Assembly: GCF_026210795.1 (NCBI RefSeq)
Contig: NC_089430.1
Span: forward strand, 3,410,001 to 3,474,000
DNA length: 64,000 nt
Direction: 5' to 3'
From: Rhizophagus irregularis
Lineage: Eukaryota
Numbering within the stretch: the stretch's first letter is position 1; each line of letters begins with the position of its first letter. This document shows, piece by piece, positions 5,936 to 64,000 of the stretch. The notes beneath the pieces are model-generated. The model was not told the DNA's origin and searched no databases. It saw only the letters and a program-made list of their open reading frames with translations. The position numbers were made by a program, and so were the translations under genes.

Positions 5936-5964
5936 TTTGTAAAAAAAATATATAATACTATATA

Positions 5965-28619: not shown

Positions 28620-28762
28620 AAAAACTAAACTAACTCTCTTCTGTTGCCTTCACGACAATATTGCGACAAAAAATAAAAAAGATTTTTTCGAAGTATTTTT
28701 ATTATTTACTTTGCGTTACTATTCACTATTACATATTTTAGTTCTCCCTTCTACTTTTAGCT

Positions 28763-30770: not shown

Positions 30771-30824
30771 ATTTTACTACCGATTATTTCCCTTTACTAC
30801 TTACTCTTTTATCATAGTGTAGTA

Positions 30825-36221: not shown

Positions 36222-36494
36222 CGGACTGGATTTTTGGATGTTGGATAGTTGACTCACACTGGCCTTCGGGTAAAGTTGGGGTATGCGATTCTGTAATAGT
36301 TTAGTTTTTCTTTTCTTGAATTTATTCTAGTTTAGATTTCTTTATTTGAATGAATCGTGAAGCTATTTTTTTTTTTATTTTTTATTAGTTTATTTTCTTA
36401 TTTTTGGAATATTGTTCGATCACATTCTCGAAGTTTAAATATAAATAAAAGATAAAGTCATAAGACTGTTTGCAAAGGAAAAGGATAAAACTAA

Positions 36495-38486: not shown

Positions 38487-38688
38487 CCACCATTCGATTC
38501 GTCTCGGTGAGACGATTACAGCAATATGATACATTTTTGTACGATTATTAGATGCCAAGTTATTTAATATATTCTTTATATAACTGTGATTATAAACGGT
38601 TCTTTTTAATATAAGATTTTTGAGGATAGGTGTGATAGTGACTATAGATAGATTGTGACTATATAGGATAGATTTTAATAATAAAGTG

Positions 38689-43387: not shown

Positions 43388-44527
43388 AATAAAGTGTTTT
43401 GAACATTCAACTGGTGTGACTATATAGTAGAATGTGACTATAACGGGAGTGACTATAGAGGGAGTTGACTGTACTTTCATTAAAGCACCAACGTGTTGTT
43501 GAGTCTTATCTATTGCATTATTTGTAACTTTGATTAGTTCCGCCTTTGCAATTTCACGATTTGTTGCATCAGTATGATCTTTTGTTGAAGCATGTTCTCC
43601 TAGAGCAGAAGATTTAAAATTCTTTGAACCTAATAAAGTAAAGATTTAATTAATACAGTATAATAATTTAAATAAATTATTTTATTATTTTTAAATAAAA
43701 ATCATTACCTCCTTTTCCAAATTTATTTTGCTTATTATGGGTTTTGCATAGCGAACAAAACATAAGGTTTTTTGATGTGTCATAAATTAACCACCTATAA
43801 ATTTCTAACCATTCTTTTTGAAAAGTTGCAGTTTTTTTCTTCAATAAAAGATGCGCTTTTTTCTTTTTAAAATTTAAATTTTTTTGTAATATATGTTTAT
43901 TATTTGGTAATTCTTCAAGTTCTGAATCAGTGTCACTAGATTCAGAATGAATAATATCTGTGTCTTCGCTAGGAACTTTTGTTTTGAAATATTGTTTAAT
44001 AGTAGACATTTTATGACGCGTAATATGAAAATTTTGATTATCAAATGATGATCTATAAAAATATAAAATATATGCCACCAATATACAAAAAATTTTGCCG
44101 GATAAAAATCTGTTGATCTTAAAAATATTCTGGAAAAAAATCCATTCTATAAAATTTTTATCGGATTTTCTTTAAAAATTCTGGTTTTTGCCAGAATTTA
44201 CAATACTATTTTTAGCTCTGACCTAAGGTAAGGTTTACATATAAAACTCTTTGAAAATCCTATTATAAAAGGAAATTTTATGTTATATTGTTATGATTTT
44301 TTTCCTTTTTAATCAATTAACCAATAGAATTTAAGCAAATTCTAAAGTAAGATTTCATATGAAAGTAAATTTTTACCAGTAACATATCTTAGTAGTAGGC
44401 AGGGTCCTACTTTATAGCTAAAACATTACCCCAAGTCTTGAGATAATTAAGTATTTTAAATTGAGACTATTTAGAAAAGATATCATATACGACTATTTTT
44501 TGAATATTATTCTTGAATGCAGACTTA

Positions 44528-45715
44528 CAGTGGACATCAAAAAAAACGCACCAAACTTTTTTAAAATTATTAATTGTTCTTATTAAATCAATTTAAATTC
44601 AATTAAAATAAAATTTAAAACTTAAATAATATATGGTTTGGCCTACTAAAAAACATAAAATTTAATATTAATTTACTAATTAGTTTTTTAATTACATAAC
44701 ATTAAATCAAAACAACTTGGTGCATTCTTTTTGCCACTTTAAAATTTTTAAAAAAATCAAAATTTTCACAAAATTATATTATGCTTTTATAATAAAAAAA
44801 TGTAAAATTAATTATTAAATAGCTTAAATTATTAATTAAAATTAAAAAAAGTCAATACTTTTTAGTAATAAATTGATTAATTTATTTAATGAATATAATT
44901 AAAAATTACTATAAAACATATAGATTTTACAGTTTTTATTATAACAGTTTTTCTTAAACTACATTAAATCAAAAAATTTTATAGTAAAATAATACCCAAA
45001 ATTAAATTCTCCTAATTAAGGGGAATTTGCGAAAAAAAAAATGGAGTGCAACGGACCTTTAGATAGTGAGATATTACTTGTTAAAGTATGGCAATGATCT
45101 TCATTTTACATATAGTGTAAATCATTTCTATATGTAAAATGAAGATCATTGCCATACTTTAACAAGTAATATCTCACTATCTAAAGGTCCGTTGCACTCC
45201 ATTTTTTTTTTCGCAAATTCCCCTTAATTAGGAGAATTTAATTTTGGGTATTATTTTACTATAAAATTTTTTGATTTAATGTAGTTTAAGAAAAACTGTT
45301 ATAATAAAAACTGTAAAATCTATATGTTTTATAGTAATTTTTAATTATATTCATTAAATAAATTAATCAATTTATTACTAAAAAGTATTGACTTTTTTTA
45401 ATTTTAATTAATAATTTAAGCTATTTAATAATTAATTTTACATTTTTTTATTATAAAAGCATAATATAATTTTGTGAAAATTTTGATTTTTTTAAAAATT
45501 TTAAAGTGGCAAAAAGAATGCACCAAGTTGTTTTGATTTAATGTTATGTAATTAAAAAACTAATTAGTAAATTAATATTAAATTTTATGTTTTTTAGTAG
45601 GCCAAACCATATATTATTTAAGTTTTAAATTTTATTTTAATTGAATTTAAATTGATTTAATAAGAACAATTAATAATTTTAAAAAAGTTTGGTGCGTTTT
45701 TTTTGATGTCCACTG
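44528..45715. mobile_element. Tc1/mariner-type foldback element: 588-bp inverted arms with 12-nt spacer
   Basis: CAGTGGACATC...GATGTCCACTG with TA TSD. Arms are 44528-45115 and 45128-45715. Confidence 0.85.
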
Positions 45716-46733
45716 TATATCCAATCATAATAGTCAAATCATCTTTTTAGAAACGTGTTGTTAAAATTTCTTTTTTTATTATCAGACTTTCTAGACTTCT
45801 TTTTTTTGCTTTTTGGATCTTTTTGAGCAGAAGTTTTATTTTATCGTTTACATCCAATTGGAGTAGTTGAAAATGGTCAACCATCATCATCAGGTTTTCA
45901 TTTCACAATATCAGCAAAAGTTACCATGCAGTTTTTTCATTTTGGAATAAATGGCACGACTTTAGTGTTCAGAGTTTTTATTTGTGTTTCAACATTCACG
46001 TCCTGTGATTGGTACGTGGTATCTTTAAAAATTTCTATATCTAAAGTTGGTGAACACAGATATATAACCTCCTGATTGGTAGATTTTGTTGACATGTTGA
46101 AGTCAGGTGATTTTTTTTTAAGATTCTGAGTTTCTCACTTAAAGTACATCTAAGTGTATTGTAAAACTCCAAGAAAGCCAGTATTAAATACATAAAACTT
46201 TTCACATTAAAGGCTTCAGTTTTCATGCATTTTCAAACTAAAGTTTTGTAGAGATTTTTTAATAAATAGTCTATTATTTCAGATTTAAAATGGTCTTATA
46301 AACTTTAGCTAATACCTGTAATACTAGTCTTAATAAAATGTTTAAAAACTACTTTAAATAAACTGATAAACTCTTTTTCTATAACATTGCAAAGTACTTT
46401 TTGTGTTTTTTTCAAGTATATTTAAGTGTTGTTGGTGTCGTTTTTAGCCATAATTTATAAAAATAAAAAATTTTTTTCTTCATAAAAAATGGTTTATATG
46501 ATTAGCAGTCAGAATTCTCTCATTATATGTCCAGTTTGAATTTAATTAATATAATATATTGATTTACTTAAGTAAATTTTATTTTCTTAAATAATTGTAA
46601 TATAATTTGATATTTCAGATGGTATAAAATCCATATAGAATAATACTTTATTAGATTGAAGTAGAATCAGAATCCCACTTACTTATAAAATAGGTTATCA
46701 GAAACCTAAAGTAAAATTTATAATTAAGAATTT

Positions 46734-49149: not shown

Positions 49150-50210
49150 AAATGCTAAGGTGAACCAGATAATGAATCCCCTAACCACCTTATAGCAATC
49201 AACTAGGGGCACGTCAGGACACGATATAAAGCATTAAACTCTACTCTTATAAGCAAAGGTGGAGTAACCATTCCCCTATACTTCCATATTACCATACTAG
49301 GTTAGATGTATTTTAGTCATTTTAACTAGACATTTCAGTATAGTACATTAAGTATAGTAAGAGTCCAAACTCCATTTTTTATAGTTCAGAGACAATCAGC
49401 CTGCACAGGTAGATATAATGGAGCTAACATCTAGAAGGCTTTTCATAGTAGTTTTAACTGGTATAGTCTTATTTAAAGCCCACTATAGGTTGTGATTATC
49501 ATTCCAGTCAACCATAGTTTTTAATCCCCAATAGTATAGTAGTGACTATCAGAACAGTAAGCTCTAAGGGTATAGGATCCTCCCTATATTATAAATGACT
49601 TACCTCAGCCTAAGGTTGCCTGCCTAAACCTCTTCAAAATTCTACGATTAGTTTCTCTAAAATTTTACTATAGTTTTATTATAGTTTTGGCAAGATTTTG
49701 GCAGTTTCAGCATTTATAATAAGTTTCATCAGTTTCACTTTTCTCTAGAGTTTCGCCAACTTTTTAATAAAACTTTTATATAATTTCAGCAAAGTTTCAC
49801 CATTTCGACATTTTGCTAACTTGCCAAAACCCTCTAGTTTCTTCAGCAACCTTATCTCAGCCACCTAGGGTTTACTAGCCAATACATCAAATATGCTGAA
49901 GAATCGAACTTCACCTCAGAACCTTATATATCTGTAAACCAATAAACATCAAAAGTTTAAACCTATTAGAAGGTAAACTACCGCAAAGATATTGCACATA
50001 GGACTTTACCATCTATGAACCCTATCTAATATGCAAAATTCACAATAAAGTTTAACACATCCTTAGTAGTATTGTAAAGTAACTACCAAAACAAGAATCT
50101 ACCTAAATAATATGCAAGCAGTGACTATCTAGACAGGACAATTGACTTACTATTGCTTCATTTTTAGAACAGAGAACACCATAACTTTCTGTTAAAATGT
50201 GCAGTATACC
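49150..50210 (-). mobile_element. Decayed relative of the 1-kb SINE-like unit
   Basis: Three blocks match the reverse complement of unit motifs: GAACACCATAACTTTCTGTTAAAATGTGC (~50174), AGTGACTATCTAGACAGGAC (~50119) and CTTCCATATTACCAT (~49281). Confidence 0.5.
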
Positions 50211-50390
50211 CTATGAAAAGGTTTTATACTTAAAATATACTTAAAATTTTATTAAAATATACTTAAAATAAGTATCAATTTTAATTTGTGATATACTTAT
50301 AATATACCTAAAATATGTCTAAAATAGTCTTAAAATATACTTTTAATATACTTGTTTTTTGCCCAAGTACTTAAATTATACTTAAAGTAT

Positions 50391-50450
50391 AGTAGATAGA
50401 TCAAGTAGGCATCACTATAATTATAGTGATGCCTACTTGATCTATCTACT
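50391..50450. repeat. Perfect 60-bp palindrome at the left edge of the virus/plasmid-like element
   Basis: AGTAGATAGATCAAGTAGGCATCACTATAA|TTATAGTGATGCCTACTTGATCTATCTACT; the half-site TTATAGTGATGCCTACTT is repeated at 50455-50472. Confidence 0.95.
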
Positions 50451-51080
50451 TACATTATAGTGATGCCTACTTATAGATATTAATACCTACTTACTTATTT
50501 TTACGTGTCTATGCCCCTTCTGATGCTTTATTGCTACCCATCTGTTTTCACTGGTCTGTGACTGTTTGGTTGCTAAACAGGGCGGAGGTTTGTTTTTCCA
50601 TTTTGAAGCCTTTTAACAATTGTATAGGAGTAAAGTTGGGTTTTCCACTCTATGACCCTTTTGATTACCATATTTGAGGTCGAGGGTGTGGTCCATTCGC
50701 TGGCCTTTTAAGTTGCTGAAATGGTGTAAAAAAATCATCGGGTGGCGCAGTTAATTTGCGGATCAGATTTTGGCCGGCACTATGGCATAATTTCTGGCCG
50801 ATCTTTAGGGCGGAATATCTTGGCTTCCTGTGATTAGCTTCGTGCGGTTTTGTGGTCATTTGAAAGAGGACGTTGAGAGCTTTCCAATGATGCTAAGATC
50901 GCATGAATTGGATGCCTGGATGCCGAGTTATTACGTCTCAAAGTTTTTGAAAAAAATATGGATTATAGTGCTAAGCAAAATTAAGCGAATCTATACTGCG
51001 CCTTACTGTGCCAGTCACGTGATACTGTTCTGGTGCCGGAACACCCTCACATAGTTGCTTCCCTCTCAATTGCCATTTCT

Positions 51081-51350
51081 TGATTGCCGGATGAGGCACA
51101 AAATGCCGAATTTGCAATCCATCTATTTGCCGAAGATATTTTACAATCCATTCCCTCACTTTTTGATTCAGCGGATGAGCACGAAGTGCCGAATTGGTGA
51201 CCTAGATGTGCAATCCTGCCTTCCATAACCCTTTTGATTGCCAAGGATGAGGCACGAAGTGCCGAATTTGTGCCCATTCTTGCAATCCCGCCCTTTATAT
51301 GCCCTTTCTGATTGCTGTGTGAGGCTCATGCGAAGTGTCGAATTGGTTCA
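51081..51350 (+). repeat. Four ~75-bp direct repeats, each with a GGCAC-GAA-GTGCC-type hairpin
   Basis: Consensus GATTGC..GGATGAGGCACGAAGTGCCGAATT..TGCAATCC at ~51081, 51164, 51235 and (degenerate) 51309. Confidence 0.8.
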
Positions 51351-51735
51351 GGCTATATCGCTTTCATATCTTTTTTCGTGTATTCTCCTGAACCTTTCTG
51401 CCTTTCCAGTCTCTTTCCTGCCTATCGGTGGTAGGCCACTCAAGTGAAATTTCTCTTTTCTTTCCTATATATAATTCTGCTTGAGTGGGTTACCATAAAC
51501 TTGCTTGTTTTCGCCTTCTAGCTCTTGTTCCTGTATAGTTTCTACTCTGGGATACTTTGGAGTACTACTACATCGATTACTTTTAGGCATTATTATATTG
51601 ATTACTTTTGGTACTACTACTGATCCAGTATTTTGCCCGCGCTAGTAAGCATATTCGCTCAAAATTATATAGAATTTTTATTTTGAACTTTGCTAGTTTC
51701 TCTGTTATTTTATACTGCTTTCTTGCATATACACC

Positions 51736-54700
51736 ATGCTTCTTGCGCAAAAAAATGCTGGGCCTAACCCCGGAGTAATAAAGCTTTTCTCAGGCTTAAC
51801 TGACCTTAATTATAAGCCTGGTCATAATAATCATGTGTATTTCCAAAACTTGTCTATCAGTAAAGATGATGTCGCTCTTCTAGATACTTATAATCCTAAA
51901 GAGATTTTAAATAAATATATAGTTCGGGTTGCAGGAAAGGGCTTTACAGTGGTCGATCATCCATCCGAAGTTTATGGGTTTTCTGATGCTCACGAGTGCA
52001 TTGATGGGAATTTGCCTCTCTGTCTGGTTCTGGATATTGATGCGAGGCAAAAGCCCGATCCCATGAATCCTAAATTTCCTTCCTTAGATGAGAGTAAAAT
52101 TTCTCGTGAAGATTTATTATCCAAAATCTTAATTGCCTGTGTCGATATTATAAATACTGATTTAAAGCATTTTGCAATATTAGATGCTTTTACTTTAGCC
52201 AGCTCGTCTAATGCTAATAAATGCAGTTGGCATATTGTATATAAATATGCACGGTTTATTGACTACAGAGATCTTAAGGGTTTTGTGGAAAAAGTCGCTG
52301 ATAAGGTTGGAAAACCATACTCAAAGTTTATTGATATTGGACTTTATAAATATCGCTTTAGTCTCCGGCTCCTTGGATCAGCAAAGGAAGATAGAGTTAA
52401 AAGACCTGCGATTTCTTCAGTTAAGAAAGGATATCACAAGCTAGAAGATTATTTAGTTCAGCCTAAGTGGAACGCTTCTGAAATCTGGCCACGGACCTTT
52501 TCTTCTGAGAAAGAAGAGAAGAAATTTCAGCCCATCGAAGATGAAACCGCCTTAAGTAACGGAGCCAGCTTAGTTATAGCAAAATATGGATGGCTTGAGA
52601 TCGGAAAAATTGGGAATGGATTTGTCCACTTTCAAGCCCAATTATATGAAGTATATCCTATTTGTGAAATCAAACACGAGAAGGATCAGTTATATGGCTT
52701 TCTTCGAAGTAATGGCTGTTTTGTACTCAAATGCTATCGGCAGAAAAATTATAAACCAGATCATAAGGGATTAGCGTTTGGAAAAGTGATCGAAATTTCT
52801 GCAAAACCTAAGAGAGGAATAGTCGAAAGAATAGGTGATGCTATATCAAATCCACGCCCCCTTGTAGAATTATCAGAGACAATGATTAATGTAGAAAAAT
52901 TAAAGGATGCTCCAGAAGTATATCCCGATTTCTTGGGTATTGAGAAAACGACAACACTTATTCGTTCTCCTCCAGGAACATGGAAAACCACTACATTAAG
53001 AGAGATTATTATGGCATTGAAAAATAAGGTATATGATCTCTCTTCTTGCCATGTTATATCTGGGTTTCTTACCGAAAGTCTCTTAGTAATGAATCAAAAA
53101 CGAAACTTGATGAGCTAAAAGCATCTGGTTTTCGAATTTGCAATTATCAAAATATACAAGGAGACTTATCTATAAATGAGTGGGATATTATCATAGTACA
53201 GGTTGAGAGTCTTTTTCGTATCGAGTTTACAGCCCGTCCATTTGTAGCTATTCTTGATGAAGCTAATGCCATTATGCGTCAAATGTCTAGCGGTACAAAT
53301 GCACGAGAATCTGAGAATGCAATACGTGATGTACTAAGATCTGCGAGACATGTTTTGGCCATGGATGCTTTTGCAAATAAATCAACACTAACCTTCCTCC
53401 AGACTTATCGTGGTGAAAATATTTGCATAGTTGATAATAAGTATCAGCCTCGTATAGGCGAGACAGTTGAATTTATTTATGATCCGAATAGCGGAGCTGA
53501 AGCCATGCGAATAGGATATGATCTTTTGAGGCAGGGCAAACGTGTAGCATTCGTATCTACTGGAGTAGTGATGGCTAGAGCGCTAGTAGAAAAAGCATCT
53601 AAGTTGTTTAAACCCGACAATTCTCCTGTTAAAGCCCGTGCATATTATGGGAATATGGATGGGAAGCAGAGACAAAAAGACTTCTCTAATATTGATGTTG
53701 CTTGGGGTGAGCTTGACTGTGTAGCTTACACAAATACAGTGGAGGCGGGAATATCATTTGAGGTTACGGGCCATTTTGATATAGTTATAGCTATTACAAA
53801 CATCGCCACTCCAGTTCATGTTGAGGCTTTTGCACAAATGCTTTATCGAATTCGTGACTGTCCTCGTCGTATTGTTTCTGTGTTTTATCAAAAAAATTCT
53901 AATGAACTTTTTCGTCCACCAGGTCGTGAAAATATCCGAGCAGAACTTGAAAGTGCTCGACCTAATAATTTGCCTACATCAATAAAGGGTCACCGTGAAT
54001 GGGATAGCAACGCCGTTTTTTATAAAATCGATGAATCTCCTGCTGTAATAACATTTGTCGAAGTTGAGCATCAGAAACGGCTTTCTGCGAGATATTTTAT
54101 TGAGAAGCTTTGTAGTCTTATAGCCAGTACTGGTGCTTCTCTCCAACTAATAAAAATGGATGAGAGCCGAGGAGTTATAGGGAATCGTAAAAAAGTCTGC
54201 AATGAGGTTAGGGTTGAAGCATTAGTTATCAAGGAAACAGATTTTGATGCGGTTGCTACTTCCCGGAATCTTGATCTTGAAGAAGCTGAAAATCTTAAGT
54301 TTGACCAAGAACGCTCTATCCCAGATACTATGGCACTTAAACGTTTCTATATGCGAAATATTTATGGTAAAGATATGGATGATAAGATTTGGGATAATCT
54401 TTGCAATAAGAAGTTTGTAAAATATTTTAGTCCGCCTGAACCTCAGAAACATTTCTTGCGGTTATCTCACTTTCGAAAGCAAGGCTATGATGAGGAAAGT
54501 GCAATGAAAGGGTTAGAGGCCAAAGATATTGCGCAATGGGAAGATAGCCATTATAAAGCTAGATATAATTCTGAAAAATCAGTAGCGGAGGACTTGCACA
54601 AATCATATTCAGCTAATCATTGGAAAGTTATAAGAGAACTCTTTCAAATACTAGGCTTTACCGGCATAGATGATAAGCGTATTCTTTCCAGTAATATAAT

Positions 54701-55046
54701 ATCAGAAACATTCACACAATCCTGCGAGAGGTTTATAAAAGTCCTGGATCAATCCCTATTACTCTTCGGATTTAAGTCTCGTGCTAAGGTAACATCGGAT
54801 CTTAATTCAGCTATAAGGGCAATTAATGCAATTGCTGGAAATTGGTGTGACTATACTGTAAAGATAAATAGGAAAAAAATAGGGCCTAAAGAAAAACAGG
54901 TTTGGGAACGTTCATATCAAATTAATCGGCAACCATATGATGGTCTTGGTTTTGGAGATAAAGGTGCGCCAGAGCTTCCACCATATAGGCTGAAAACAGA
55001 TAATGATATTCAGGAACTCTTTGATTCTATAGGGCAGGACAAATAA
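51736..55046 (+). CDS. PrimPol/AEP primase + Zn finger + UL9-like (origin-binding protein) SF2 helicase fusion; one frameshift near 53045
   Basis: AEP motifs LVLDID, KCSWH and IDIGLY...SLRLLGSAK. Zn-finger-like PICEIKH...KCYR. Walker A-like IRSPPGTWKTT, WVSYRKSLS, QVESLFR, ILDEA, AMDA, YTNTVEAGISF and QMLYRIR. Intronless. Confidence 0.8.
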
Positions 55047-55071
55047 TATTTCAGCCCAGATAGTTATTCAG

Positions 55072-55308
55072 CTAAATCTTGACCATATTAGATTCTGTTT
55101 TAGTTTTTTTACTTTCGCGCCAGGCACGGTCATAAAATCTGCTATGCGTGCTACAGATTCCAGTATCAGAATAGGTTCCCTGCCCGCAGATAGGGCATAT
55201 TGTTCTAGGAAGGGCATTATAATGTCTGGCGCATCCTAATTTACTCATGCTTCCTTTTCCACAGTTCGAACCATCTCTCTTGATGTATTGGCAGATAAAA
55301 CGACCCAT
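55072..55308 (-). CDS. Small Cys/His Zn-finger protein
   Basis: C-x7-G-x2-C...C-x2-H followed by CPIC...C-x2-H; paralogous to 61136-61393. Confidence 0.6.
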   Translation of the reverse strand: MGRFICQYIKRDGSNCGKGSMSKLGCARHYNALPRTICPICGQGTYSDTGICSTHSRFYDRAWRESKKTKTESNMVKI

Positions 55309-55525
55309 ACGAGGTAATTTTAATATTAATAATCTTAAAACTTCACTTTCACTTTTATTATAGATATTTAAAAATGCGATGTCTCAGCGGGTCATATCTC
55401 CCAAGATATAATCAGAGAAATGCTCATGCAAATCACCTTCGGCCAGGTGGGATATAATTTTTCGAATTGAATTTTTTCTCACATAATATAAGTAGAAGAA
55501 ACAACTGAAGTCTACTTATATCGAC

Positions 55526-56846
55526 ATGTCTACTGCAGAACCCACTCAAAAGACCCAGAAAGTGAAAACTAATAAATTCGTTTTGATTCTAGAACAGTTC
55601 TTAGAAAGATATAACTTATCCGCAGAGTCCAGCCCAGAGCAATTAAGCGAACATGCCCCTGAACTTAATGCTTTACTTCCAGATTGGAAGGCCCGTAAGT
55701 GCGTTAAGGAAGCCCTTGCGAGAGCGGCTGAAAAGAGAAGTGCATTTAGCAAAGAGCAGAAAGAGGCTCTCGTGCCAGATCAGAGAAATATGATATATTC
55801 AGTCAGGGAAAAGGGCTCAAGAAGTCGCTAAAAGTGAAGATAAGTGGGATATTTTTATTAATACTTTAGATTTGGGACCAAAAGGAAGTAAGGATGGAGT
55901 AATTGATGATAAGGAAATGGTTGCTTCTAGCTCAAACCAATCACGATTTCGTAAGTATTTAGCAGAGTACGGGGCCGATCGTGAACTTATTGATCGCTAT
56001 GCCAAAGATTTGAAGACCACTACAGCTTCCAATAAAATCCAGCAAGAGCGGACTGAGAAGCGCTTGGCTAATCCAGGTAGAACTCCAGAACATTTCACCT
56101 TTGAGAAAGTGCATAGGAGACTCCAGAATATCGATACTTCTAAAATTCCCTCTATGCAGGATCTCGCGGATGTGATAGTGATGCTGAGCATGAGGCCTGC
56201 TGAAGTATCATCTCTCCAGATTATTAATTACAAACCAGATTCTGAAGATCCGCCAGCGTGGTATAAAGCTGGTTATTGCGGTCGGTATTGCACTGGATGT
56301 CGCAAACAGAGAGATAAACCGATGCCTATGCGCTTACTCTCTATGGAAAAGGATCTAGAACGTGCTAGGGAATTACTTACCTGGATTCAAGACGCTATTA
56401 AGGCTGGGAAGTTGCGTGATCCAGTTTATACTGAAACTGAAAAGCGTAATAATGTGCCATTTGCCAAATTCATAAAGAGTTTAAAAACTAATCAGGACGA
56501 AGATGAGATTACCCCCGAGCTTCTAAGAAAAATAGGAGCTAAACACGCCTCGATGGTTCATGCCAGTCCAAATAAAACCCCTCAACATCTCGACAATCTT
56601 TCAGAAATCGCATTAAGACATAAAATTAACCGTCTTGATGCAGGAAAAAATTACGCTTTGGGTGATCCAAAATCGAAGAAGGAGCCCAAATCTGAACCAG
56701 AGACAGGTGATGGTCCAAAACCCCAAACACAGGCTTCTTCACCTGCATCTCAGTCTAGAAATAACGATCCAAAAAAGTCTCAAACAATGGATATGGATTC
56801 AATGTTAGCAGAAATTGATGCAATGTTAGCTGAAATTTGGAAATAG
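55526..56846 (+). CDS. Tyrosine recombinase, protelomerase/telomere-resolvase-like; one frameshift near 55810
   Basis: Ordered motifs MLSMRPAEV (R), TGCRKQR (K), LLRKIGA (R), ALRH (H) and KNY (Y). The frame of ORF 55872 stays open upstream into ORF 55526, implying one gene of ~440 aa. Confidence 0.6.
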
Positions 56847-57030
56847 ACGAGCTATACACAGCGCCTTCGGCCAGATTGTGCGATAAATATTCAGTTTATT
56901 TTTTTCAGATATATAAAAATGTTAAGAAGTGATATAGATGAAATGCCAGGTTGATTAATCAGCCCTCCCTTATTTCTCATATTTGTTCAGAAAAAGAATA
57001 GATTAATTGAATCGGACAAACTATCTGGTA

Positions 57031-57246
57031 ATGGCTAAAAAATCAAGAAATAACAGGCGCAAGACAATGGGTAAGTTTACTACTAATCCCACACAATATT
57101 TCTCCCTATGCAATCCAGCCAAATATGAGCACACATATGATAGGGCAACCGGCTTTATCACTGTCAAGAATAAAAGACAGGATAGGATTGTAGGCGTGTT
57201 CGATTATCCCGAGCTGAGTGAATATCTGGGAGTTCGATCTAACTAG
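57031..57246 (+). CDS. Small basic hypothetical protein
   Basis: 71-aa ATG ORF in the gene-dense element, with natural composition. Confidence 0.4.
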   Translation: MAKKSRNNRRKTMGKFTTNPTQYFSLCNPAKYEHTYDRATGFITVKNKRQDRIVGVFDYPELSEYLGVRSN

Positions 57247-57431
57247 TCCGGAGCGGTGATCACTTCGCTCGAAAGAAGAATTTGCTGGGCCACTCCTGTG
57301 CGACAGAAAAATAAGTGGATCAGCAGTCAGCCTCATGTGCAACATAATTTTCGCATATACTGAAAAGAAGCTATGCACGCTACCAGTACTTTATTTTTTA
57401 TTAAGTATAATTGATCTACAATATTAGCAAA

Positions 57432-57815
57432 ATGTTTGATGAGGATATAGATGCTGAGAAGGAGAAAGCCTTCGATGAATTTACCAAAGAATATGGACAG
57501 AGAGAAGAGGATTGGACTATTTATGATGATTGGTATGACTGGGATGACCTTTTTTGTGAAATTAAGACCCATTGGAACACAAAAGCTGTCAAGTATTGGA
57601 GAGAGAAAATACTTAAGCGATTTGTATATAGTCTACCCAGTGTAAGTAATCCAACGTCATTATTCCATGTACTCTTACAATCCAATGTTATTTATCTCCC
57701 ACAAATAATAAGTCTAATAGAATTGCCATATTATCCACTTGAACTTCGATCAGAAATATGGGGTCCCTCCAGGACCTGCCCGGATGGTATATATTGGTCA
57801 GTCCGAGGTCAGTGA
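57432..57815 (+). CDS. Hypothetical protein (acidic, Trp-rich N-terminus)
   Basis: ATG ORF preceded by the repeated intergenic motif at 57265-57360. Confidence 0.45.
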   Translation: MFDEDIDAEKEKAFDEFTKEYGQREEDWTIYDDWYDWDDLFCEIKTHWNTKAVKYWREKILKRFVYSLPSVSNPTSLFHVLLQSNVIYLPQIISLIELPYYPLELRSEIWGPSRTCPDGIYWSVRGQ

Positions 57816-58416
57816 TCTGGTCCCTTTAGGACCTCTTCAGCTCGGAAGAATTTGCTGAGCCACAGATTGTGTGACAGAAAAAGGCCGATCACCAGGCAGG
57901 GTTTGTGCGACATATTAATTTTCACATATATATTCGAAAAACATATTAACCTTTATTCTTTATTTTTTTCCCGAACAAACATGAGGAAAAAATGGCCTGC
58001 TTCACAGGCGCTTCGCTTGAAAGGAGGTCTAGTTGGAGCACAGGACCAGCTCTAAAAGTAAATAGTGCCGACAAAAGCATATGTTATGAAAGGCTGAGGA
58101 CTTTGGAATTTCGAGATCGCCAGGCGTAAAACCAACTATGTCTTTCCGGTAGATCTACATGTGAAAAGGTATGAGAATTCTATTTGCATGTGCCTTCATA
58201 GAACTCTTGGCATCATACGACAATGCTAATCACTATTCTTATTTCCTTAACTTCGGCTTGGCGCTCTTTTTCCAGCAAGATATAAAGTATGTAGAGATAT
58301 GTGGAAGTTCAGCCAACTTTCCGCAAAAATAATTGAGGTATGTATATGCCAAAAGTCATGTTTACTGCAAGCGATAATTTCTCACAACGGGCCCTTGCAT
58401 TCCAGAAAACGAAAAT

Positions 58417-58731
58417 ATGGCCAATATTACTCTCAACTGCCTTATAATTCCCACCGGTCGCTTCACTGGAATTCCAAACAATGATGCTAATCTAACGGTT
58501 ACAATTCCCCTTGGAAATACAGTCAGAAATCTTCACGCTCAGATTCAACAACAGTTACCTCAGCAATTCAGAAATGTCCCATTTTATCTTCGCGCACTCC
58601 GCTCTGGGCTTGTAAATTACGTTGCTATGCGACAAGGGGGATTGATTTCTAATTATTTTGATGAAAATCTCACTGCGGACGTTTACCATGTTCTTATAGA
58701 GGATGATGTATATGGTTATTATGACTTGTAA
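58417..58731 (+). CDS. Stand-alone Crinkler (CRN) N-terminal ubiquitin-like domain protein
   Basis: ITLNCLI...LTVTIPLGNTVRNLHAQI...FYLRA...YHVLIE matches the CRN header pattern, including an HVLV-like end. Confidence 0.6.
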   Translation: MANITLNCLIIPTGRFTGIPNNDANLTVTIPLGNTVRNLHAQIQQQLPQQFRNVPFYLRALRSGLVNYVAMRQGGLISNYFDENLTADVYHVLIEDDVYGYYDL

Positions 58732-59005
58732 TGCGAAATATTCGTGCGAAGCGCCTTAACGGCCAATTTTTATGTATTGTAAGCCGGCTACCGGCAACTA
58801 TTTTACAGTATTTCATAAATAAAGTATTATTTTATCGAACGTATATGAGAAAGGGTCACGTGTAATGATGCAATGCCTGTGCTACATAAAAACCTATATT
58901 AATACCCAGTATTCCCTTTCCCGAACAGATATAAAATTTTATCTCACTCCGAACGTAACACTATTTTTTTGTCCGAGCCTATTATCACTATAAAAACGTA
59001 ACACT

Positions 59006-60274
59006 ATGTCTTCTGAAACCAGTACACCTTATACTCCAGCTTCCACCTCTACTACTGTTGCTGGAAATGAGACTGTCTCGTTGGCGGACGAAATTAAAAA
59101 ATATGATACGGCCAAGCTTATAGATTTCTTGCGTGGGGAAAAGGACTTACTTCTTAACGATGCTCATTTCGAAATTTTGCGCAAACGAGAAATAGTCGGT
59201 CGAGCTTTCCTCAACATGGACAAACAAGATTTCAGAGATAGTGGGTTTGAAATAGGAACAGCCATAGTACTTGCGGACTTCGCTAAGGAGTGTAAGGAGA
59301 AAAAGAAGCGTGCGTTTTCCTCATACCGCAGTTTGGAGGAAGTGTTAGAAAAATACGGCATTAAGAGTAGTAGTATAACGAGCATCCCCCAGTTCACACC
59401 AGGTAAGTTATGCACATGCCAACCTTTTTCGTTACGAATAGCAACTCACGTATTCTGAATTTATAGTCCCCCACACAATCGATGAAAAATCTCCAGAGTT
59501 TAAGCTCTGCATTGATGACATTCTTCGTAGGATAAAAAACATGGGGCCAGTCGTAGATAGTAATGAGGCTATGCGTTGTGAATACATTTCTACAATCCTT
59601 CATACTGCTGTCAGCATCCTCGGAGGATTGGTAATCTTACCTCAGATGAATGTATCTGGTGAAGAAAGTTCCGGCCGTGTAGATTATGCGATCAAGAAAA
59701 TACTGGATGATTTGCTCGAAGAAATAATATGCATAACCGAAGGAAAGCAAAACCAGCCAGGGAAAGGAGTGGCTCAGAACCTTATGCAATGTCGAAGTTC
59801 GTGCGAAGTAAGTAATACCTTTTTTATGTCTAGCCTCCATTCGATTATCCTTCTATCAGAAAATACTAACAAATCCTCATCTGTAAACATAGATGAACTT
59901 AGATACGCTCAAGAAAAAGCGTACGGCTGATGAAGCATTCGAGGAGTATGAATATGTCTATGGTATCGTCACAACAGGTGAGAAAATGACTCTAGTGAAG
60001 GTTTCTGTTTCGCTTTTGCATCACTAACTCTCACAATTTCTTAGCCACGGACTGGTATTTCATTCTACATAGCACCGAGGCTATCTATTGTACGAGCAAG
60101 ACTGAGTATCGCATCTCTCTGACTGAAGACGCACTCAAGGACTCAACCGACTTGCGCAAGAATGTGAAGAGGATTTTAGGGGTTATAGTGGGCTTGTTAA
60201 GAGATAGGGTATCAGCTAGTGAGGAACCCGCAAATAAGAAGCGCCGTGTAGAAGAAATAATCAAGAAAAAATAA
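59006..60274 (+). CDS. SAM-like + PD-(D/E)xK nuclease (Crinkler-associated family); exons 59006-59402, 59467-59807, 59893-59977, 60045-60274
   Basis: Three clean GT-AG introns give an intact frame. SAM-like LIDFLR...IVGRAFL...GF.IG. Nuclease motifs NEAMRCEYIS, GRVDYAI, ITEGKQ, GVAQNLMQ and YGIVTTATDWYF. Confidence 0.8.
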
Positions 60275-60456
60275 TCATGTATATTAGATAGACATCATGT
60301 ATCACGGGCTACGTCCCGAACATTTGTATTTATTTTTCGCATGTATTAATAAAAAAAAATTTGAATTTTGCAGATAAATATGATAAGCGAAAAAATATAT
60401 AGTCATGGAACTGCCATTCCAGGGCTATAAACAATTATTTATATCGTAATCACGCC

Positions 60457-61008
60457 TTAGCAAAATGCTCGCGCTAGAGCCAATATATGTTCTGGCCCTA
60501 AAACACTAGTCTTGGTAAATGCATCATATAATGCACCCGGTCTATGCTTCGAAGGAATTAAATTTGAATGATGGAGGAATTTCATAAGCACGTCGTTCCT
60601 CCAAGTTTTCATCTCTTCTTGCTCCCAAGTTATTCCTATTAACGTAGTCAAGTTATCAATGGAATAGTTCATTTGGATTAGATTCTGGAGCGAAGATCGT
60701 TTATTTTTTTCTAGAGTAAATAGACTCATTCCTCCCATAACAGCAGACTCCACACTAATAATAAATTTTTCACGAATATCTGCTCTAATTGCTAAGACAG
60801 ATAGAGGCGGAATTAGAGCTGGGTGGTAGAAGTCGGCTAAGGGATCCAGCTCAAATTCACCTACATATATGATTCCAATGTCTTCTAAATAATCTGAGAG
60901 TCTATCAACATATTTATAGCCTTCCCGAATCAACTTCTGGAATAGCTTTCTGTTTGGATCGATCCATCGGCCGGTTAGAATGTTGAGTACTGTTTTTTCC
61001 GCGTTCAT
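60457..61008 (-). CDS. Hypothetical protein with N-terminal N-x-x-TGR-x-I motif
   Basis: Intact intronless 183-aa ORF. VLNILTGRWI...LFQKL resembles the NPxTGRxI motif of large-DNA-virus proteins. Confidence 0.55.
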   Translation of the reverse strand: MNAEKTVLNILTGRWIDPNRKLFQKLIREGYKYVDRLSDYLEDIGIIYVGEFELDPLADFYHPALIPPLSVLAIRADIREKFIISVESAVMGGMSLFTLEKNKRSSLQNLIQMNYSIDNLTTLIGITWEQEEMKTWRNDVLMKFLHHSNLIPSKHRPGALYDAFTKTSVLGPEHILALARAFC

Positions 61009-61135
61009 AGATGATGATTTATGCTGTGGTATATGATTAATCGTTTACGATATACTTTTTCCACCACAGTTCAATTAGGATTTTCTCATTTTGAAATTCG
61101 AATTCTATAATGTGAAAGGTGCAAGAATATAATAA

Positions 61136-61393
61136 ATGGAACGTCTTACCTGTCCCCACATTAAAAAAGATGGAAGTGTTTGTGGCCGTGTTTGCACTCG
61201 CTTGGTGGGATGCTCGCTCCACTGGAAATCAGGTGCAAATAATATGCTAAAATCTCCATGTAGAATATGCGATAAACCTACATTATCTTATACGGGCTAT
61301 TGCTCCAAGCATGCCAAAAAAATTTATCGTCGCCTCGAAAGAGAGAGGGAGAGGCAACGAGATGTCTTATCGCATATTACTCATTCACTTTAG
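61136..61393 (+). CDS. Small Cys/His Zn-finger protein
   Basis: CPHIKKDGSVC...CSLH...CRIC...GYCSKH; paralog of 55072-55308. Confidence 0.6.
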   Translation: MERLTCPHIKKDGSVCGRVCTRLVGCSLHWKSGANNMLKSPCRICDKPTLSYTGYCSKHAKKIYRRLERERERQRDVLSHITHSL

Positions 61394-61546
61394 TGAACAA
61401 ACATTAGTCCCGGACTTTAATAAAAAATTTTCTTGGCAAAAGTGATCTGTGTGTCAAATTGTCACGCGACCATGATTTTTTTATCTATTACTATACTAAC
61501 TCGAACTTTTGAACTATCCCATCTCATATAAAAAGTATTATCAAAC

Positions 61547-63139
61547 ATGCAATCTGAGATTGATTCATTGAAAGAAATAAATTCGAAACTCTTGGCCGAG
61601 ATTAGTGAACTTAGAAAGGAGAATGCCGAAGTCAAGGCTGAGAATATCGAAGTTAAGGTTGAGAATGCGAAGTTAAAGCATGCTTTGGAAGAACATGAAG
61701 CCAGATTCACGAACCTAGAACAGAGAGATAAAGAAAAGACCAACCTTATTGCTAAATTAGATGATGATATCAGGGAAATCAAACAGGAACAAAATGTTAA
61801 TATTTTGGCACAAAGCAATACATTCATACCAAAGTCTCCAATTCATTCAATAAGTTCACAATCATCTATTTCGCCAAATATTGAGGGGATTTCAAAGCAA
61901 TCGGATTGCTCTGATCATTCTATTGAAAAGAATAATGCTGACCCTATATCTCAGGATTTCGATTCAATACCTTTAGATCAAACTAATATATCTTCCGTTG
62001 TAGACCAGTATGATACTACCGAATCTAAATCATTGGAGGATGATAGAGAGACGGATTCTTTCTTAGATGAGGTGCATAGGAAGAAGGTTAGTAATGAGAT
62101 AAGGGAGAGAAAGCGGAAAATAAAACTTCAGCATGAATTAACTACCCAAGACTCATCCTCAGTTACTTCTGTCTCATCCTGTCCACCCACTAGTTCGTGT
62201 TCAGGGAAAAATGTTGAGAAACTATGTTTGAAGGAGAGAGACAAACAGAACACTCCGTCACATCAAAAAATCCTCTATAGGGAAAAAGTGGAGCGAGGTT
62301 TAAGGCAGGAACTATCATCTTTTTGCAGTAAGGACAGCGATGGTAGGGTGTTTGACATTCAGATTCCCGAATTCTCCTTAGAAGCGATTCTAACAGGATC
62401 TAGTAAAATTACAGCACAAACCATAGTCGAACTATTTAATGTAGCAATGAAGGTCAGACATAAGGAGATACTATGCTGGTATTGTTACTATAAAGCGTAC
62501 GAGGATCGAATTAGGGATTTTAAATCTACGAATAAGATTGACGACCAATCGGCAAGGACATTGGTATACAGCGAAATCAAATCCCTTCTTCCAGACATTA
62601 CTGACGTGAACTTGCGTAAAATCACTTCTAGAGCTAAAAAGGTTTATGTATTATTCGAGGGGATAGGAATAGATAAAATTCAAGCAGTTACTTATAGCGC
62701 AAGTGCTATTTCAAGTTTGATAGAAATTCAGATCCAAGGCATTATAAGTTGTTTTCCCAAGACTTATAAGTCTTCTACGGATGATACAGATGAATGCCAA
62801 AAAATGATCAGCGTGACAAATCGTCACGCGCACGTGACTGAATCTTCTGAGGTAAGCGCATCAATGATTTCATCAGTCACACCTCAAGCAAGTAGGACTC
62901 ATGACCGCACCTATTTTCGCAACAAGATATTGGATCAATATCCTAATCTATATAGAGAATGTAGTAGTGAAAATTTCGATTATTATGGAATTACTGATGA
63001 GACATCATGCGGAGTCTCGAGAGAGACCATCTGCCCATTATGCAAATTAGGTCATAATGATGAAGAAATAGAAGGTAGGTATAAAGCCGGATCTTACTTT
63101 ATTAAGTGTGAACAGCATGAAATTGAGATAACTGCATAG
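61547..63139 (+). CDS. Coiled-coil hypothetical protein with conserved helical domain and C-terminal CPLC..H motif
   Basis: Intact intronless 530-aa ORF. N-terminal ENAEVK heptads; central WYCY...ARTLVYSEI...NLRKITSRAKKVY.LF..IG; C-terminal CPLCKLGH. Confidence 0.7.
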   Translation: MQSEIDSLKEINSKLLAEISELRKENAEVKAENIEVKVENAKLKHALEEHEARFTNLEQRDKEKTNLIAKLDDDIREIKQEQNVNILAQSNTFIPKSPIHSISSQSSISPNIEGISKQSDCSDHSIEKNNADPISQDFDSIPLDQTNISSVVDQYDTTESKSLEDDRETDSFLDEVHRKKVSNEIRERKRKIKLQHELTTQDSSSVTSVSSCPPTSSCSGKNVEKLCLKERDKQNTPSHQKILYREKVERGLRQELSSFCSKDSDGRVFDIQIPEFSLEAILTGSSKITAQTIVELFNVAMKVRHKEILCWYCYYKAYEDRIRDFKSTNKIDDQSARTLVYSEIKSLLPDITDVNLRKITSRAKKVYVLFEGIGIDKIQAVTYSASAISSLIEIQIQGIISCFPKTYKSSTDDTDECQKMISVTNRHAHVTESSEVSASMISSVTPQASRTHDRTYFRNKILDQYPNLYRECSSENFDYYGITDETSCGVSRETICPLCKLGHNDEEIEGRYKAGSYFIKCEQHEIEITA

Positions 63140-63314
63140 TCTTACCCCCTCAATCAAAGATTTCGGGGTGGGAGAAAAGTGATATATTTCTTACTTGCAG
63201 GCTCGCAGGCTCGCAGGCTCCGTATAACAGATAGGTTTTTTTTTCTCACCCTGCAGTTCGAAGAATAAAGGGGCGGGGATTTAAATTGATCTGTGATCAT
63301 AGAAAAAAGGAAAC

Positions 63315-63866
63315 ATGAGCGAATCCAATAAAATATTAACTCCCGAATACCTAGATTGGCATGCCAAATTAAGTGGGCTACCAAGCGTTTTGACAGATAA
63401 AATTCGCTTCAAATTTTACAAAAGATATAAAAAAGAAACTGGATGTGAGCCATGGCAATTATCAGAAGATCGCCTTCTCATAAATTCGAAACCAGAAAAC
63501 AAAGTATCCTATTTAACTTCTCCTGAGCAATGTGAAGAAAAAGGGCCCATCACTTTCGAAGCCAGACCCGATCCAAAATTAATTATTAAGTCCGTCTTAA
63601 AGCACTTCCCATACTTGAAATTCGGAAATAGTTTCAGAGGGATTGATAATTATGATTTTACATCACCTCAGCCGTGGAGCTCACCATGTCCTATTTGCGA
63701 TGGAAAACATGGGAATTATGGATTACATGGCTCATGGTACTGCGAAAATGGGAATCAGTTCCCTTATGATCCTGAATTAGCGAAGTTGTATTTCCAGGAT
63801 AAGTTGGAATATTGTCTTACCTGCAATACTTCAAGCAATAAACTAAAGTTCGCAATTGTACTGTAG
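63315..63866 (+). CDS. Hypothetical protein with CPIC..H motif
   Basis: Intact 183-aa ORF. Its C-terminal half (ILKHFPYL...DNYDF...CPICDGKH) parallels the end of ORF 61547-63139. Confidence 0.55.
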   Translation: MSESNKILTPEYLDWHAKLSGLPSVLTDKIRFKFYKRYKKETGCEPWQLSEDRLLINSKPENKVSYLTSPEQCEEKGPITFEARPDPKLIIKSVLKHFPYLKFGNSFRGIDNYDFTSPQPWSSPCPICDGKHGNYGLHGSWYCENGNQFPYDPELAKLYFQDKLEYCLTCNTSSNKLKFAIVL

Positions 63867-64000
63867 CATAGGACAAAAACAGATCATGTGAAATCAATCA
63901 CCCGAAAAAATGTACTCATTGCCATGATAAATGCACTGCTGAAATAATAGGACTGTGCAAATTCCAAGGTAAATGAAATTTTGGTCATATGAGAATTTTT

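Follow-up and report, generated by a model that had tools for sequence, protein, structure and literature searches.

A candidate protelomerase-based hairpin replicon family integrated in the nuclear genome of the arbuscular mycorrhizal fungus Rhizophagus irregularis

Protelomerase-based hairpin replicons are found in bacteria, bacterial phages and algal giant viruses. Their enzymes, such as TelN, TelK and TelA, cut head-to-head palindromic junctions and reseal the products as two hairpins. To our knowledge, a lifestyle combining a hairpin-ended plasmid with chromosomal insertion has so far been met only in bacterial phage-plasmids and algal giant viruses. In the telomere phage-plasmids N15, phiKO2, PY54 and VP882 the primase-helicase initiator gene adjoins the protelomerase gene, and the R. 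irregularis locus described here shares with them (i) this neighbourhood (in the VP882 layout), (ii) helicase similarity to VP882 RepA, (iii) the protelomerase fold and (iv) a palindrome of 60 bp (56 bp in N15). It differs in its fungal nuclear host, its many chromosomal copies, an AEP-type primase (weakly supported), the lack of visible partition, head or tail genes, and a protelomerase without sequence-level similarity to theirs. The preliminary description likened the palindrome to the telRL site; the protelomerase-type junction stands, but instead of an internal telRL we find a terminal, perfectly symmetric junction of the telL-L' type.

The Ectocarpus phaeovirus elements (EVEc, EsV-1, FsV-158) are, according to the accessible text of PMC13236599, likewise eukaryotic, integrated and equipped with a telomere resolvase, and reads reverse at their palindrome, as one contig folds back here; however, these giant viruses number 372 genes, encode a capsid and a DNA polymerase of their own, possess a separate integrase with attL/attR and carry telRL internally, as against a two-gene core, small cargo and a palindrome at the very edge in the present element. 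The cyanobacterial PAST transposons are also mobile, with their own protelomerase and telomere, but the available part of the preprint (bioRxiv 10.1101/2024.11.13.623437) describes them as bacterial, moved by transposase proteins and placed at replicon ends, whereas the present copy lies within a chromosome and has a replication initiator but no visible transposase. Cryptons, Glomhoppers (DUF3504; PMC13465315) and Starships (DUF3435) are, like this family, fungal DNA elements that occur in many copies and encode an enzyme with a tyrosine nucleophile; Glomhoppers are found in this host group and Starships also carry cargo. In contrast to all three, the enzyme here is resolvase-like and the first gene is a replication initiator; the Glomhopper paper (PMC13465315) does not mention telomeres, helicase, primase, hairpin or palindrome. 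Polinton-like viruses are small integrated elements that also pair a helicase-primase with a recombinase, but they are defined, in the accessible text of PMC7805220, by jelly-roll capsids and a packaging ATPase, usually with terminal inverted repeats, and no such features were seen in the 13.6 kb present here. Finally, the "replication-origin-binding" genes described in R. irregularis as potentially viral (PMC10234402) probably belong to the same helicase family (IPR003450); they are treated there as vertically inherited genes, and an element, a recombinase and a hairpin are absent from the main text.

The features of the locus, which occupies the right part of the analysed 64-kb stretch (the window), are listed in Table 1. 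A protein match of 100% agrees with R. irregularis as the host.

Table 1. Features of the element and its left flank (window coordinates)
Position	Strand	Feature	Basis or remark
50108..50391	.	AT-rich high-copy host repeat	Broken by the element, outside it
50391..50450	.	Perfect 60-bp palindrome	Left element boundary; putative replicated-telomere junction and protelomerase target
50403..50472	.	18-bp motif, three copies	50403-50420 minus, 50421-50438 plus, 50455-50472 plus
50451..51735	+	Conserved non-coding leader	At least 3 imperfect direct repeats of 35-110 bp at 51080-51347
51736..55046	+	Fusion of AEP-type primase, zinc finger and UL9/CyRepA1-like SF2 helicase	
55072..55308	-	Small Cys/His-rich zinc-finger-like ORF	39% identity (E 5e-12) to its paralogue at 61136-61393
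55526..56846	+	Protelomerase (telomere resolvase)-like protein	Atlas clusters, fold of relative P0019, residue order; motif codons start at 56190 (MRP), 56295 (GxxK), 56517 (ExxR), 56610 (ALRH), 56643 (GxxY)
57432..57815	+	Short ORF of a multi-copy family; probable cargo	Weak paralogue of 60457-61008
58417..58731	+	Small ORF resembling Crinkler N-termini; probable cargo	Pfam E 0.0046, below cut-off
59006..60274	+	Gene over three frames; probable captured host-type cargo	First part in helicase-fused model P0230
60457..61008	-	183-aa ORF tied to the element family	Fused models
61136..61393	+	Second zinc-finger-like ORF	Relatives fused to protelomerase in P0042, P0320
61547..63139	+	530-aa ORF, coiled-coil-like N-terminus	Weak coiled-coil-type matches only
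63315..63866	+	183-aa Cys-rich ORF	No family match (Pfam, PHROGs, NCBIfam)

The perfect palindrome that the preliminary description placed at the edge of the gene block was borne out: it has perfect 30-bp arms, no spacer and its centre at 50420/50421, it begins at the junction 50390/50391, and the GC content steps from 0.20-0.25 at 44-50 kb to 0.37-0.40 at 50-64 kb. No other palindrome without a spacer in the window reaches arms of 12 bp, and about 1.6e-12 palindromes like this one would be expected by chance per window. Since other long inverted repeats, with spacers, occur there (e.g. 44526-45717, with 590-bp arms), the palindrome by itself is not decisive. The host repeat on its left has a very high summed contig depth (such depths were not taken as copy numbers), and behind 50390/50391 other copies of this repeat carry on with different letters in the contigs of three of the four runs compared. 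The palindrome marks the point where the element was inserted into a host repeat. Contigs that match the palindrome from 50390/50391 with other preceding letters were found in runs X15 (two) and X5 (one); as the two X15 flanks are available in the form of one blended consensus (agreement 0.73), the contigs probably, though not certainly, mark different insertion sites. Matches to the 18-bp motif (up to 3 mismatches) number three in the whole window, against 0.08 expected, and none lies outside 50403-50472; the copies are candidate protein-binding boxes. A likeness between the host target and the TACTT-containing motif of the element was not counted, TACTTA being common in the window (35+34 occurrences).

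The same end was detected in an independent metagenome contig of a relative (L004), which shares 86% identity with the leftmost 1.2 kb of the element (over 1168 nt) and encodes the primase start. The link between palindrome and helicase gene proposed earlier is seen at this boundary and in one further contig, whose sequence turns back on itself at the identical centre: L004 passes the palindrome centre into a perfect mirror (60+60 bp) and then ends, and the one base that differs from the window differs symmetrically in both arms. Among simulated unitigs, those from an integrated copy with a 30-bp arm had a mirror of at most 30 bp at all 13 k values, and hairpin read-through gave a 60-bp mirror at k=121; a hairpin end or a head-to-head junction reproduces the L004 pattern, and the integrated 30-bp-arm copy fails to do so. 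The fold-back is seen in one contig, i.e. one of four metagenome pattern hits, whose assembly settings are not known, and it could also stem from fold-back priming during library preparation or from a longer-armed integrated copy. The other three hits (L001-L003) were unrelated to the element. No strand-changing joints were found in any contigs of the runs compared.

The leader between the palindrome and the first gene is a candidate replication origin. That gene, with a frame change near 53046-53055, had been read as an AEP/PrimPol-UL9-like fusion. The helicase half of this claim stands: the window ORF matched Pfam Herpes_ori_bp (E 4.7e-5, above the cut-off) and the family profile matched herpes UL9 chains (E 1.6e-14). 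Further matches were obtained with NCBIfam CyRepA1, known from cyanobacterial plasmids (E 2e-39, yet below the cut-off), and phrog_4913 (E 2.6e-21). Among 50,697 phage records, the sole helicase match was RepA of VP882 (two records, E 8e-5, weak), whose gene lies about 1 kb from the VP882 protelomerase gene. For the primase half the AEP motifs are readable (DxD at 52030, SxH at 52225, the third at 52330), and fold support is weak: the structure model of the domain was poor (pLDDT 49.7) and its best matches were PrimPol/AEP structures, none of them significant (best E 0.046, Z 7.4).

The second core gene, which has a frame change near 55809-55813, had been called a tyrosine recombinase; this assignment was upheld and could be narrowed to the protelomerase type by fold class, Atlas clusters and catalytic residues, its catalytic activity being predicted. 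The nearest Atlas clusters of the window ORF were PF16684 ResT/TelK (score 0.96, 17 of 30 matches), with phage integrase not appearing before rank 26. An AlphaFold model was built on the full-length relative P0019 (pLDDT 83). Foldseek placed TelA at ranks 1-6 and TelK at rank 8 (best E 9e-4), and in a comparison with 48,161 chains only four reached Z>=8, namely TelA (10.8 and 10.3), TelK (10.3) and ResT (8.7); the first chain below the telomere resolvases scored 6.8 and every integrase ranked under them. The top viral match was the telomere resolvase of EhV-86 (E 6.6e-3). In the 72-row family alignment the majority residues R218 (69/72), K254 (69/72), R326 (63/72), H357 (38/72) and Y367 (49/72) follow the order of the TelA catalytic residues R255, K286, R366, H394 and Y405, as given in the accessible text of PMC3558466. 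The catalytic H is replaced by Q in 16/72 rows, and the (K/Y/H)xxR position holds K in 41/72 rows and E in the subfamily of the window (2/72 rows; also P0499/P0500). PF16684 itself matched none of the 72 members in a Pfam scan at E 0.05, the family being too divergent for the profile, and DUF3504, DUF3435 and Phage_integrase matched none either. No link to protelomerases emerged from sequence-only searches (phmmer/hmmsearch against the PDB, Pfam, NCBIfam, tblastn against phages), and profile comparison with the VP882 protelomerase, entered as a single sequence, gave a probability of 0.3. A protelomerase tree of 26 chosen rows, with long branches and no outgroup, was not used for questions of origin. 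We had also considered the E in ExxR and a W in Walker A (24 of the 31 motifs read) as decay of this copy, but dropped this reading because relatives share both. Given the frame changes in both genes and these two subfamily residues, the activity of the subfamily is uncertain.

These data also bear on an unlikely alternative, i.e. that the element is a self-replicating tyrosine-recombinase transposon without a hairpin phase, whose enzyme has turned integrase and whose palindrome is a recombination site or a herpes-oriS-like origin to which the helicase binds. UL9 binds palindromic origins, and the helicase here is UL9-like; moreover, the element is multi-copy and integrated, no second integrase was seen in the block, and the other contigs that begin at 50390/50391 suggest programmed integration. 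According to the accessible text of PMC12270096, replicated telomeres can undergo recombination by wild-type ResT and by mutant forms of TelA. However, the fold is clearly nearer to telomere resolvases (Z 8.7-10.8) than to integrases (Z <=6.8), the perfect palindrome is similar in size to the 56-bp N15 site reported in PMC13236599 (available part), and the L004 mirror exceeds the 30-bp arm, which an integrated 30-bp-arm copy does not explain.

Inspection of locus tags revealed that the two core genes recur side by side in Rhizophagus, Glomus and Diversispora, which does not fit scattered single-copy host genes. Among the matches listed, a helicase lies within two tags of the protelomerase for 4 of the 8 protelomerase tags in one R. 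irregularis annotation (one of these pairs is identical to the window, hence not independent; the other four tags have no helicase neighbour among these matches) and for 2/4 in Glomus cerebriforme, and within three tags for 1/3 in Diversispora epigaea. Helicase and protelomerase are joined in five fused gene models, the pairs lie on several chromosomes, and several protelomerase clades occur within one species. In gene model P0410 the protelomerase is fused to a D5-like helicase, and some family members carry this type beside the protelomerase in place of the UL9-like one. All 68 species-named matches, among the 120 listed, were from Glomeromycota, and divergent homologues were found on metagenome contigs of 4-16 kb. 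Short-pattern scans gave no confirmed match in IMG/VR (helicase, helicase alignment, two protelomerase alignments, 18-bp motif) and no confirmed relative in prokaryote genomes (protelomerase alignment, one helicase). It is very improbable, and largely refuted, that the genes are old horizontal acquisitions inherited vertically, with the palindrome an unrelated host inverted repeat and the L004 mirror an artefact. Other perfect inverted repeats do exist in the window, and the origin-binding genes were read, in the accessible text of PMC10234402, as acquired once and then inherited vertically; this leaves unexplained why the palindrome lies exactly at the host-repeat junction, why it is followed in L004, too, by this leader and the beginning of the primase, why the gene pairs recur on several chromosomes, and why one species has members of several protelomerase clades.

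Several of the remaining ORFs are also found with the core genes elsewhere. In P0420, a fused model, the counterpart of the 55072-55308 ORF again stands between the two core genes, the 57432-57815 family comes after both in P0001, and relatives of the Crinkler-like ORF and of the 57432 ORF are two locus tags apart. The 60457-61008 ORF is fused with the protelomerase in P0271, P0272 and P0303 and with the helicase in P0225; the 61547-63139 ORF has a partial match in the helicase-fused models P0219 and P0232. The 59006-60274 gene, without a significant Pfam match, is probably broken up by introns, as judged from its reading frames. Its spread over three frames and the frame changes in both core genes were absent from the preliminary description. 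Within the window (to 64000) neither a right end nor a second telomere was seen, and Rfam matched nothing in 49-64 kb. In line with the proposed separation from Polintons, Helitrons and Starships, Pfam detected neither pPolB with a DDE integrase nor HUH-Pif1 in the 11 block ORFs scanned and, as noted above, no DUF3435 in the family. PHROGs matched no tailed-phage structural or partition genes in the block.

Doubtful, too, is a reading of the block as the left portion of a longer endogenous DNA virus, either Polinton-like or related to nucleocytoviruses, with viral hairpins as in phaeoviruses and with capsid and packaging genes past 64000 or lost. The right end does fall outside the window, telomere resolvases are encoded by phaeoviruses and EhV-86, AEP-UL9-like and D5-like helicases (the latter fused in P0410) are typical of eukaryotic DNA viruses, and the short metagenome contigs with divergent homologues would suit a virus. 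Nevertheless, no capsid, packaging ATPase or DNA polymerase was matched among the 50.4-64 kb ORFs in Pfam, PHROGs or NCBIfam (divergent capsids may escape these), no recognisable capsid was seen in the fused gene models examined (scored only for matches to the window), and five strains lack nucleocytovirus major capsid, A32 and D5 markers in the accessible text of PMC10640383. The available part of a 2026 preprint reports Rhizophagus A32-like ATPases, tied to Polintons.

Our preferred reading, with a probability of about two in three, is that the locus holds a frameshifted copy, inserted in a chromosome, of a multi-copy Glomeromycota family of hairpin-telomere linear replicons, whose free form rests on one contig. 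The perfect palindrome, together with a replication gene beside a predicted gene for a hairpin-sealing enzyme, makes replication as a linear hairpin-ended plasmid likely. The self-replicating, N15-analogous element proposed earlier is therefore supported, with the present copy frameshifted. From the palindrome, the junction position, the recurring gene pair, the enzyme fold class and the fold-back contig we infer an enzyme activity, a free linear form and modes of integration and release that may operate as follows. The primase-helicase would open an origin close to the left end, with host polymerases copying the DNA; replication round the hairpin would yield a head-to-head palindromic junction, which the protelomerase would cut at its centre (50420/50421) and reseal as two hairpins. 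On integration, some 30 bp of the mirror arm would be retained next to host DNA; the chromosomal copy would then open with the full 60-bp junction, which could allow the enzyme to remake a hairpin end.

No earlier description of the element was found in the literature, in a search that covered neither paper supplements nor the unclassified Glomeromycota consensus entries of Repbase/Dfam. We see an even chance that the family represents a new class of nuclear, capsid-less linear plasmids of arbuscular mycorrhizal fungi, with protelomerase-made hairpin telomeres, swappable UL9-like and D5-like primase-helicase modules, junction-keeping integration with one-enzyme release, and host-type cargo (Crinkler-like, F-box) ferried between loci and perhaps nuclei. 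The predicted protelomerase of the family and its 60-bp site offer a concrete enzyme-substrate pair. These fungi lack stable transformation, and a free form, if it exists, would be a candidate native vector for them. If the preferred reading is true, the classification of eukaryotic mobile elements would gain a new group, a small family with many copies in the nuclear genomes of fungi, and the Glomeromycota "replication-origin-binding" genes would become parts of a mobile replicon. The sources of genetic variation in these fungi are a long-standing question, and the family would then offer a route by which accessory genes move in them.

The gene block is bounded on its left by a perfect palindrome, the only spacer-free one in the window with arms of at least 12 bp (chance expectation ~1.6e-12). 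Since other long inverted repeats are present in the genome, its membership of the block was put to the test. A window scan with an 18-bp motif of the palindrome arm gave 3 matches (0.08 expected), including one further copy close by and none elsewhere. Alignment of contigs from four sequencing runs (X1, X5, X8 and X15) revealed a high-copy AT-rich repeat on the left side of 50391. Beyond 50390/50391, other copies of this repeat in X5, X8 and X15 run on with different sequence; the element thus interrupts the repeat at that point, and the 60-bp palindrome claimed at the block edge in the preliminary description proved to lie exactly at this junction. In two X15 contigs the match to the palindrome starts at 50390 and is preceded by different sequence (a blended consensus, agreement 0.73), and one X5 contig matches from 50391; this suggests, without proof, further insertions carrying the same 30-bp outer arm. 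X1, the best-matching run and possibly the window's own source, was left out of the independent evidence; one low-depth contig from it joins at 50404 instead. No strand-changing joint was found among the joints listed for the junction region in the contigs of the four runs.

Features of the window and their positions
Feature	Position	Strand	Description
147-bp-period repeat family	5963-6849, 14369-15413, 25937-26511, 38472-38687		internal dyad symmetry; direct and inverted clusters
LINE-like element	26604-38486		RRM ORF1, endonuclease, reverse transcriptase, RNase H
Terminal inverted repeats	38689-38874, 43202-43387		perfect, 186 bp, 4.3 kb apart
ORFs between these repeats	39124-42438		
Inverted repeat	44526-45717		perfect; 590-bp arms, 12-bp spacer; within AT-rich DNA
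High-copy insertion	49611-49854		~245 bp, very high copy; sharp ends, varied flanks in 4/4 runs
Inverted copy from the LINE-like region	49961-50018		degraded
Palindrome	50391-50450		perfect, 30+30 bp
Further arm motif	50455-50472		18 bp
Primase-helicase gene	51736-55046	+	
Walker A motif	52966-52990		GTWKT in place of GTGKT
Helicase frame change	near 53046-53055		
Recombinase gene	55526-56846	+	
Recombinase frame change	near 55809-55813		

GC content rises from 0.20-0.25 at 44-50 kb to 0.37-0.40 between 50 kb and the window end. The left 50 kb is repeat-rich and includes a MULE remnant and the LINE. On either side of the latter stands a tandem pair of ~1-kb repeat copies (85-92% alike); non-LTR elements do not usually have direct terminal repeats of such length. 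The unit between the terminal inverted repeats is probably a recent DNA transposon (the single ORF scanned had no Pfam match), and the high-copy insertion is probably a MITE. The long inverted repeat could be a fold-back element of recent origin or an artefact of assembly, and is a useful control for fold-back reads.

The recombinase ORF is identical to the R. irregularis protein P0003 over 248 aa (100%), which identifies the host as this arbuscular mycorrhizal species or one very near to it. Its family gave 135 matches at E≤0.001, and all 68 species-named proteins among the 120 listed belong to Glomeromycota (seven genera); a second search yielded 187 representatives, including divergent proteins on 4-16 kb contigs. 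Sequence profile searches put no name on the family. In the ESM Atlas, the window ORF lies beside PF16684 ResT/TelK clusters (0.96; 17 of 30 matches), with a phage integrase cluster first at rank 26, and a divergent member is placed likewise (0.98). A structure of the full-length relative P0019 was modelled from 72 chosen rows (pLDDT 83). In Foldseek (best E 9e-4), TelA took the first six ranks, followed by the Tn1549 integrase and, in eighth place, TelK. In an exhaustive comparison, only 4 of 48,161 chains reached Z≥8, namely TelA (Z 10.8, rmsd 11.3, 240 aligned; second chain Z 10.3), TelK (Z 10.3, rmsd 3.8, 158 aligned) and ResT (Z 8.7, rmsd 4.0, 137 aligned), the next chain having Z 6.8. 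The conserved residues R218 (69 of 72 rows), K254 (69), K323 (41), R326 (63), H357 (38) and Y367 (49) follow the same order as R255, K286, Y363, R366, H394 and Y405 in TelA (PMC3558466). The window protein keeps R, K, R, H and Y, with E at the third position, as in close relatives. The proposed tyrosine recombinase is therefore protelomerase-like as modelled, and we count its fold class as shown. An integrase-only transposon, against which the closer fit to resolvases speaks, is unlikely.

The helicase part of the companion gene matches Pfam Herpes_ori_bp, herpes UL9 structures (profile, E 1.6e-14), NCBIfam CyRepA1 (E 2e-39; 136 bits, under the 200-bit cut-off) and phrog_4913 'replication' (E 2.6e-21). 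Its only match among 50,697 phage records was RepA of VP882 (2 records, 22% identity, E 8e-5), which has a protelomerase ~1 kb away, just as the element pairs both genes. The N-terminal part contains a zinc finger and motifs that we take to be those of an AEP; a profile matched the vaccinia D5 AEP domain weakly (E 0.039), and PrimPol structures were nearest to a low-confidence primase-domain model, below significance. Of the AEP/PrimPol-UL9-like fusion described previously, the UL9-like helicase stands, and the AEP/PrimPol part, with its motifs, weak D5 match and non-significant model, remains putative. At the frame change, some relatives align through without loss and several gene models omit 16-23 residues. 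The tryptophan of the Walker A motif recurs in 24 of the 31 relatives' motifs read, and the ATPase site may be altered across the whole subfamily.

The pairing of helicase and recombinase genes, also claimed earlier, recurs in other loci and genera. Among the protelomerase tags listed, a helicase lies within 2 locus tags in 4 of 8 cases in one R. irregularis annotation (OCT59_012116/7, identical to the window and hence not independent, 011604/5, 024943/5 and 002569/7) and in 2 of 4 in Glomus cerebriforme (C1645_811904/811902, 829047/829049), and within 3 tags in 1 of 3 in Diversispora epigaea (Glove_406g23/g20); listed tags lacking such a neighbour are not thereby unlinked. Five gene models contain the two genes in fused form (P0001, P0223, P0239, P0420 and, weakly, P0097). 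Other fused models tie ORFs at 55.1, 57.4, 59.0, 60.5, 61.1 and 61.5 kb to one or other of the core genes; the greater part of the block would accordingly be cargo carried by the element. In the R. irregularis model P0410 the protelomerase is fused with a D5-like helicase (Pox_D5, DUF5906), suggesting a second element class with another replication module; the Gigaspora proteins P0022 and P0038, which point the same way, are named 'highly derived d5-like helicase-primase'. The best viral match of the P0019 model was the EhV-86 telomere resolvase (E 6.6e-3), and scans of IMG/VR and prokaryote genomes gave no confirmed relatives. That the block is part of a larger virus is slightly less likely than the integrase-only reading. 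Divergent protelomerase homologues with apparently intact motifs (P0322, P0327, P0336, P0345 and P0367, on 4-16 kb Logan/ENA contigs) and one divergent 1641-aa primase-helicase (P0002) may stem from kindred elements or viruses beyond Glomeromycota.

When metagenomes were scanned for the 18-bp motif, 4 loci emerged, 3 unrelated and one (contig L004) a relative, 86% identical to 50391-51546 over 1168 nt and encoding the primase start. The palindrome and the gene block form a real feature, and a merely coincidental association of the two is very improbable. L004 differs from the window by one base, symmetrical in both arms; it crosses the palindrome centre and then reads for 60 bp as a perfect mirror image of the element's interior, at which point the contig ends, without host flank. 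In unitig simulations with the window sequence, an integrated copy gave a mirror of ≤30 bp at 13 of 13 k values, and hairpin read-through or a head-to-head junction gave (k-1)/2 bp, i.e. 60 bp at k=121, which would fit L004 if it was assembled with such a setting. The mirror could also stem from fold-back priming while the library was made, or from an integrated copy whose arms are longer. The proposed free form with hairpin ends has this single contig as its only evidence.

The observations (the palindrome and its junction, the pairing of the two genes, the fold class of the enzyme and a single fold-back contig) support the N15-analogous replicon proposed in the preliminary description. We consider the element an integrated copy of a family of N15-type hairpin-ended linear replicons of Glomeromycota, with a probability of about two in three. 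By analogy with N15-type systems, replication of such a linear DNA would start at an internal origin, and the protelomerase would resolve its head-to-head junctions. In the chromosome, the copy has kept a 60-bp junction, near in size to the N15 palindromic site (56 bp; PMC13236599), and so could be a protelomerase substrate for regenerating the left hairpin. Joining to host DNA might proceed by a recombination side-activity of the enzyme, as reported for ResT and TelA mutants (PMC12270096), or might follow when an opened hairpin is repaired. With two frame changes, the window copy is probably non-autonomous.

The element is undescribed in the literature searched, which gave no paper on a protelomerase in Glomeromycota or Mucoromycota, nor on a telomere resolvase in a mycorrhizal context; Repbase/Dfam, supplements and subscription journals, outside this search, may hold an earlier record. 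Origin-binding genes of potential viral origin were noted and read as vertically inherited (PMC10234402), helicase-primase genes were removed as transposon-related, with 24% of the genome left as unclassified repeats (PMC8647823), and further papers concern a giant endogenous virus (PMC10640383), Polintons (PMC7805220; bioRxiv 10.64898/2026.06.19.733378) and another recombinase family (PMC13465315). The nearest systems are N15-type phage-plasmids, Ectocarpus phaeovirus elements (PMC13236599) and PAST transposons (bioRxiv 10.1101/2024.11.13.623437). The element resembles the N15-type hairpin replicon in its working, but falls outside that phage group. Whether arbuscular mycorrhizal fungi host nuclear, capsid-less, hairpin-telomere linear plasmids, with swappable replication modules, junction-keeping integration, re-release and cargo transport, is in our estimate evenly balanced; if true, the element would add a new group to the mobile elements of eukaryotes.
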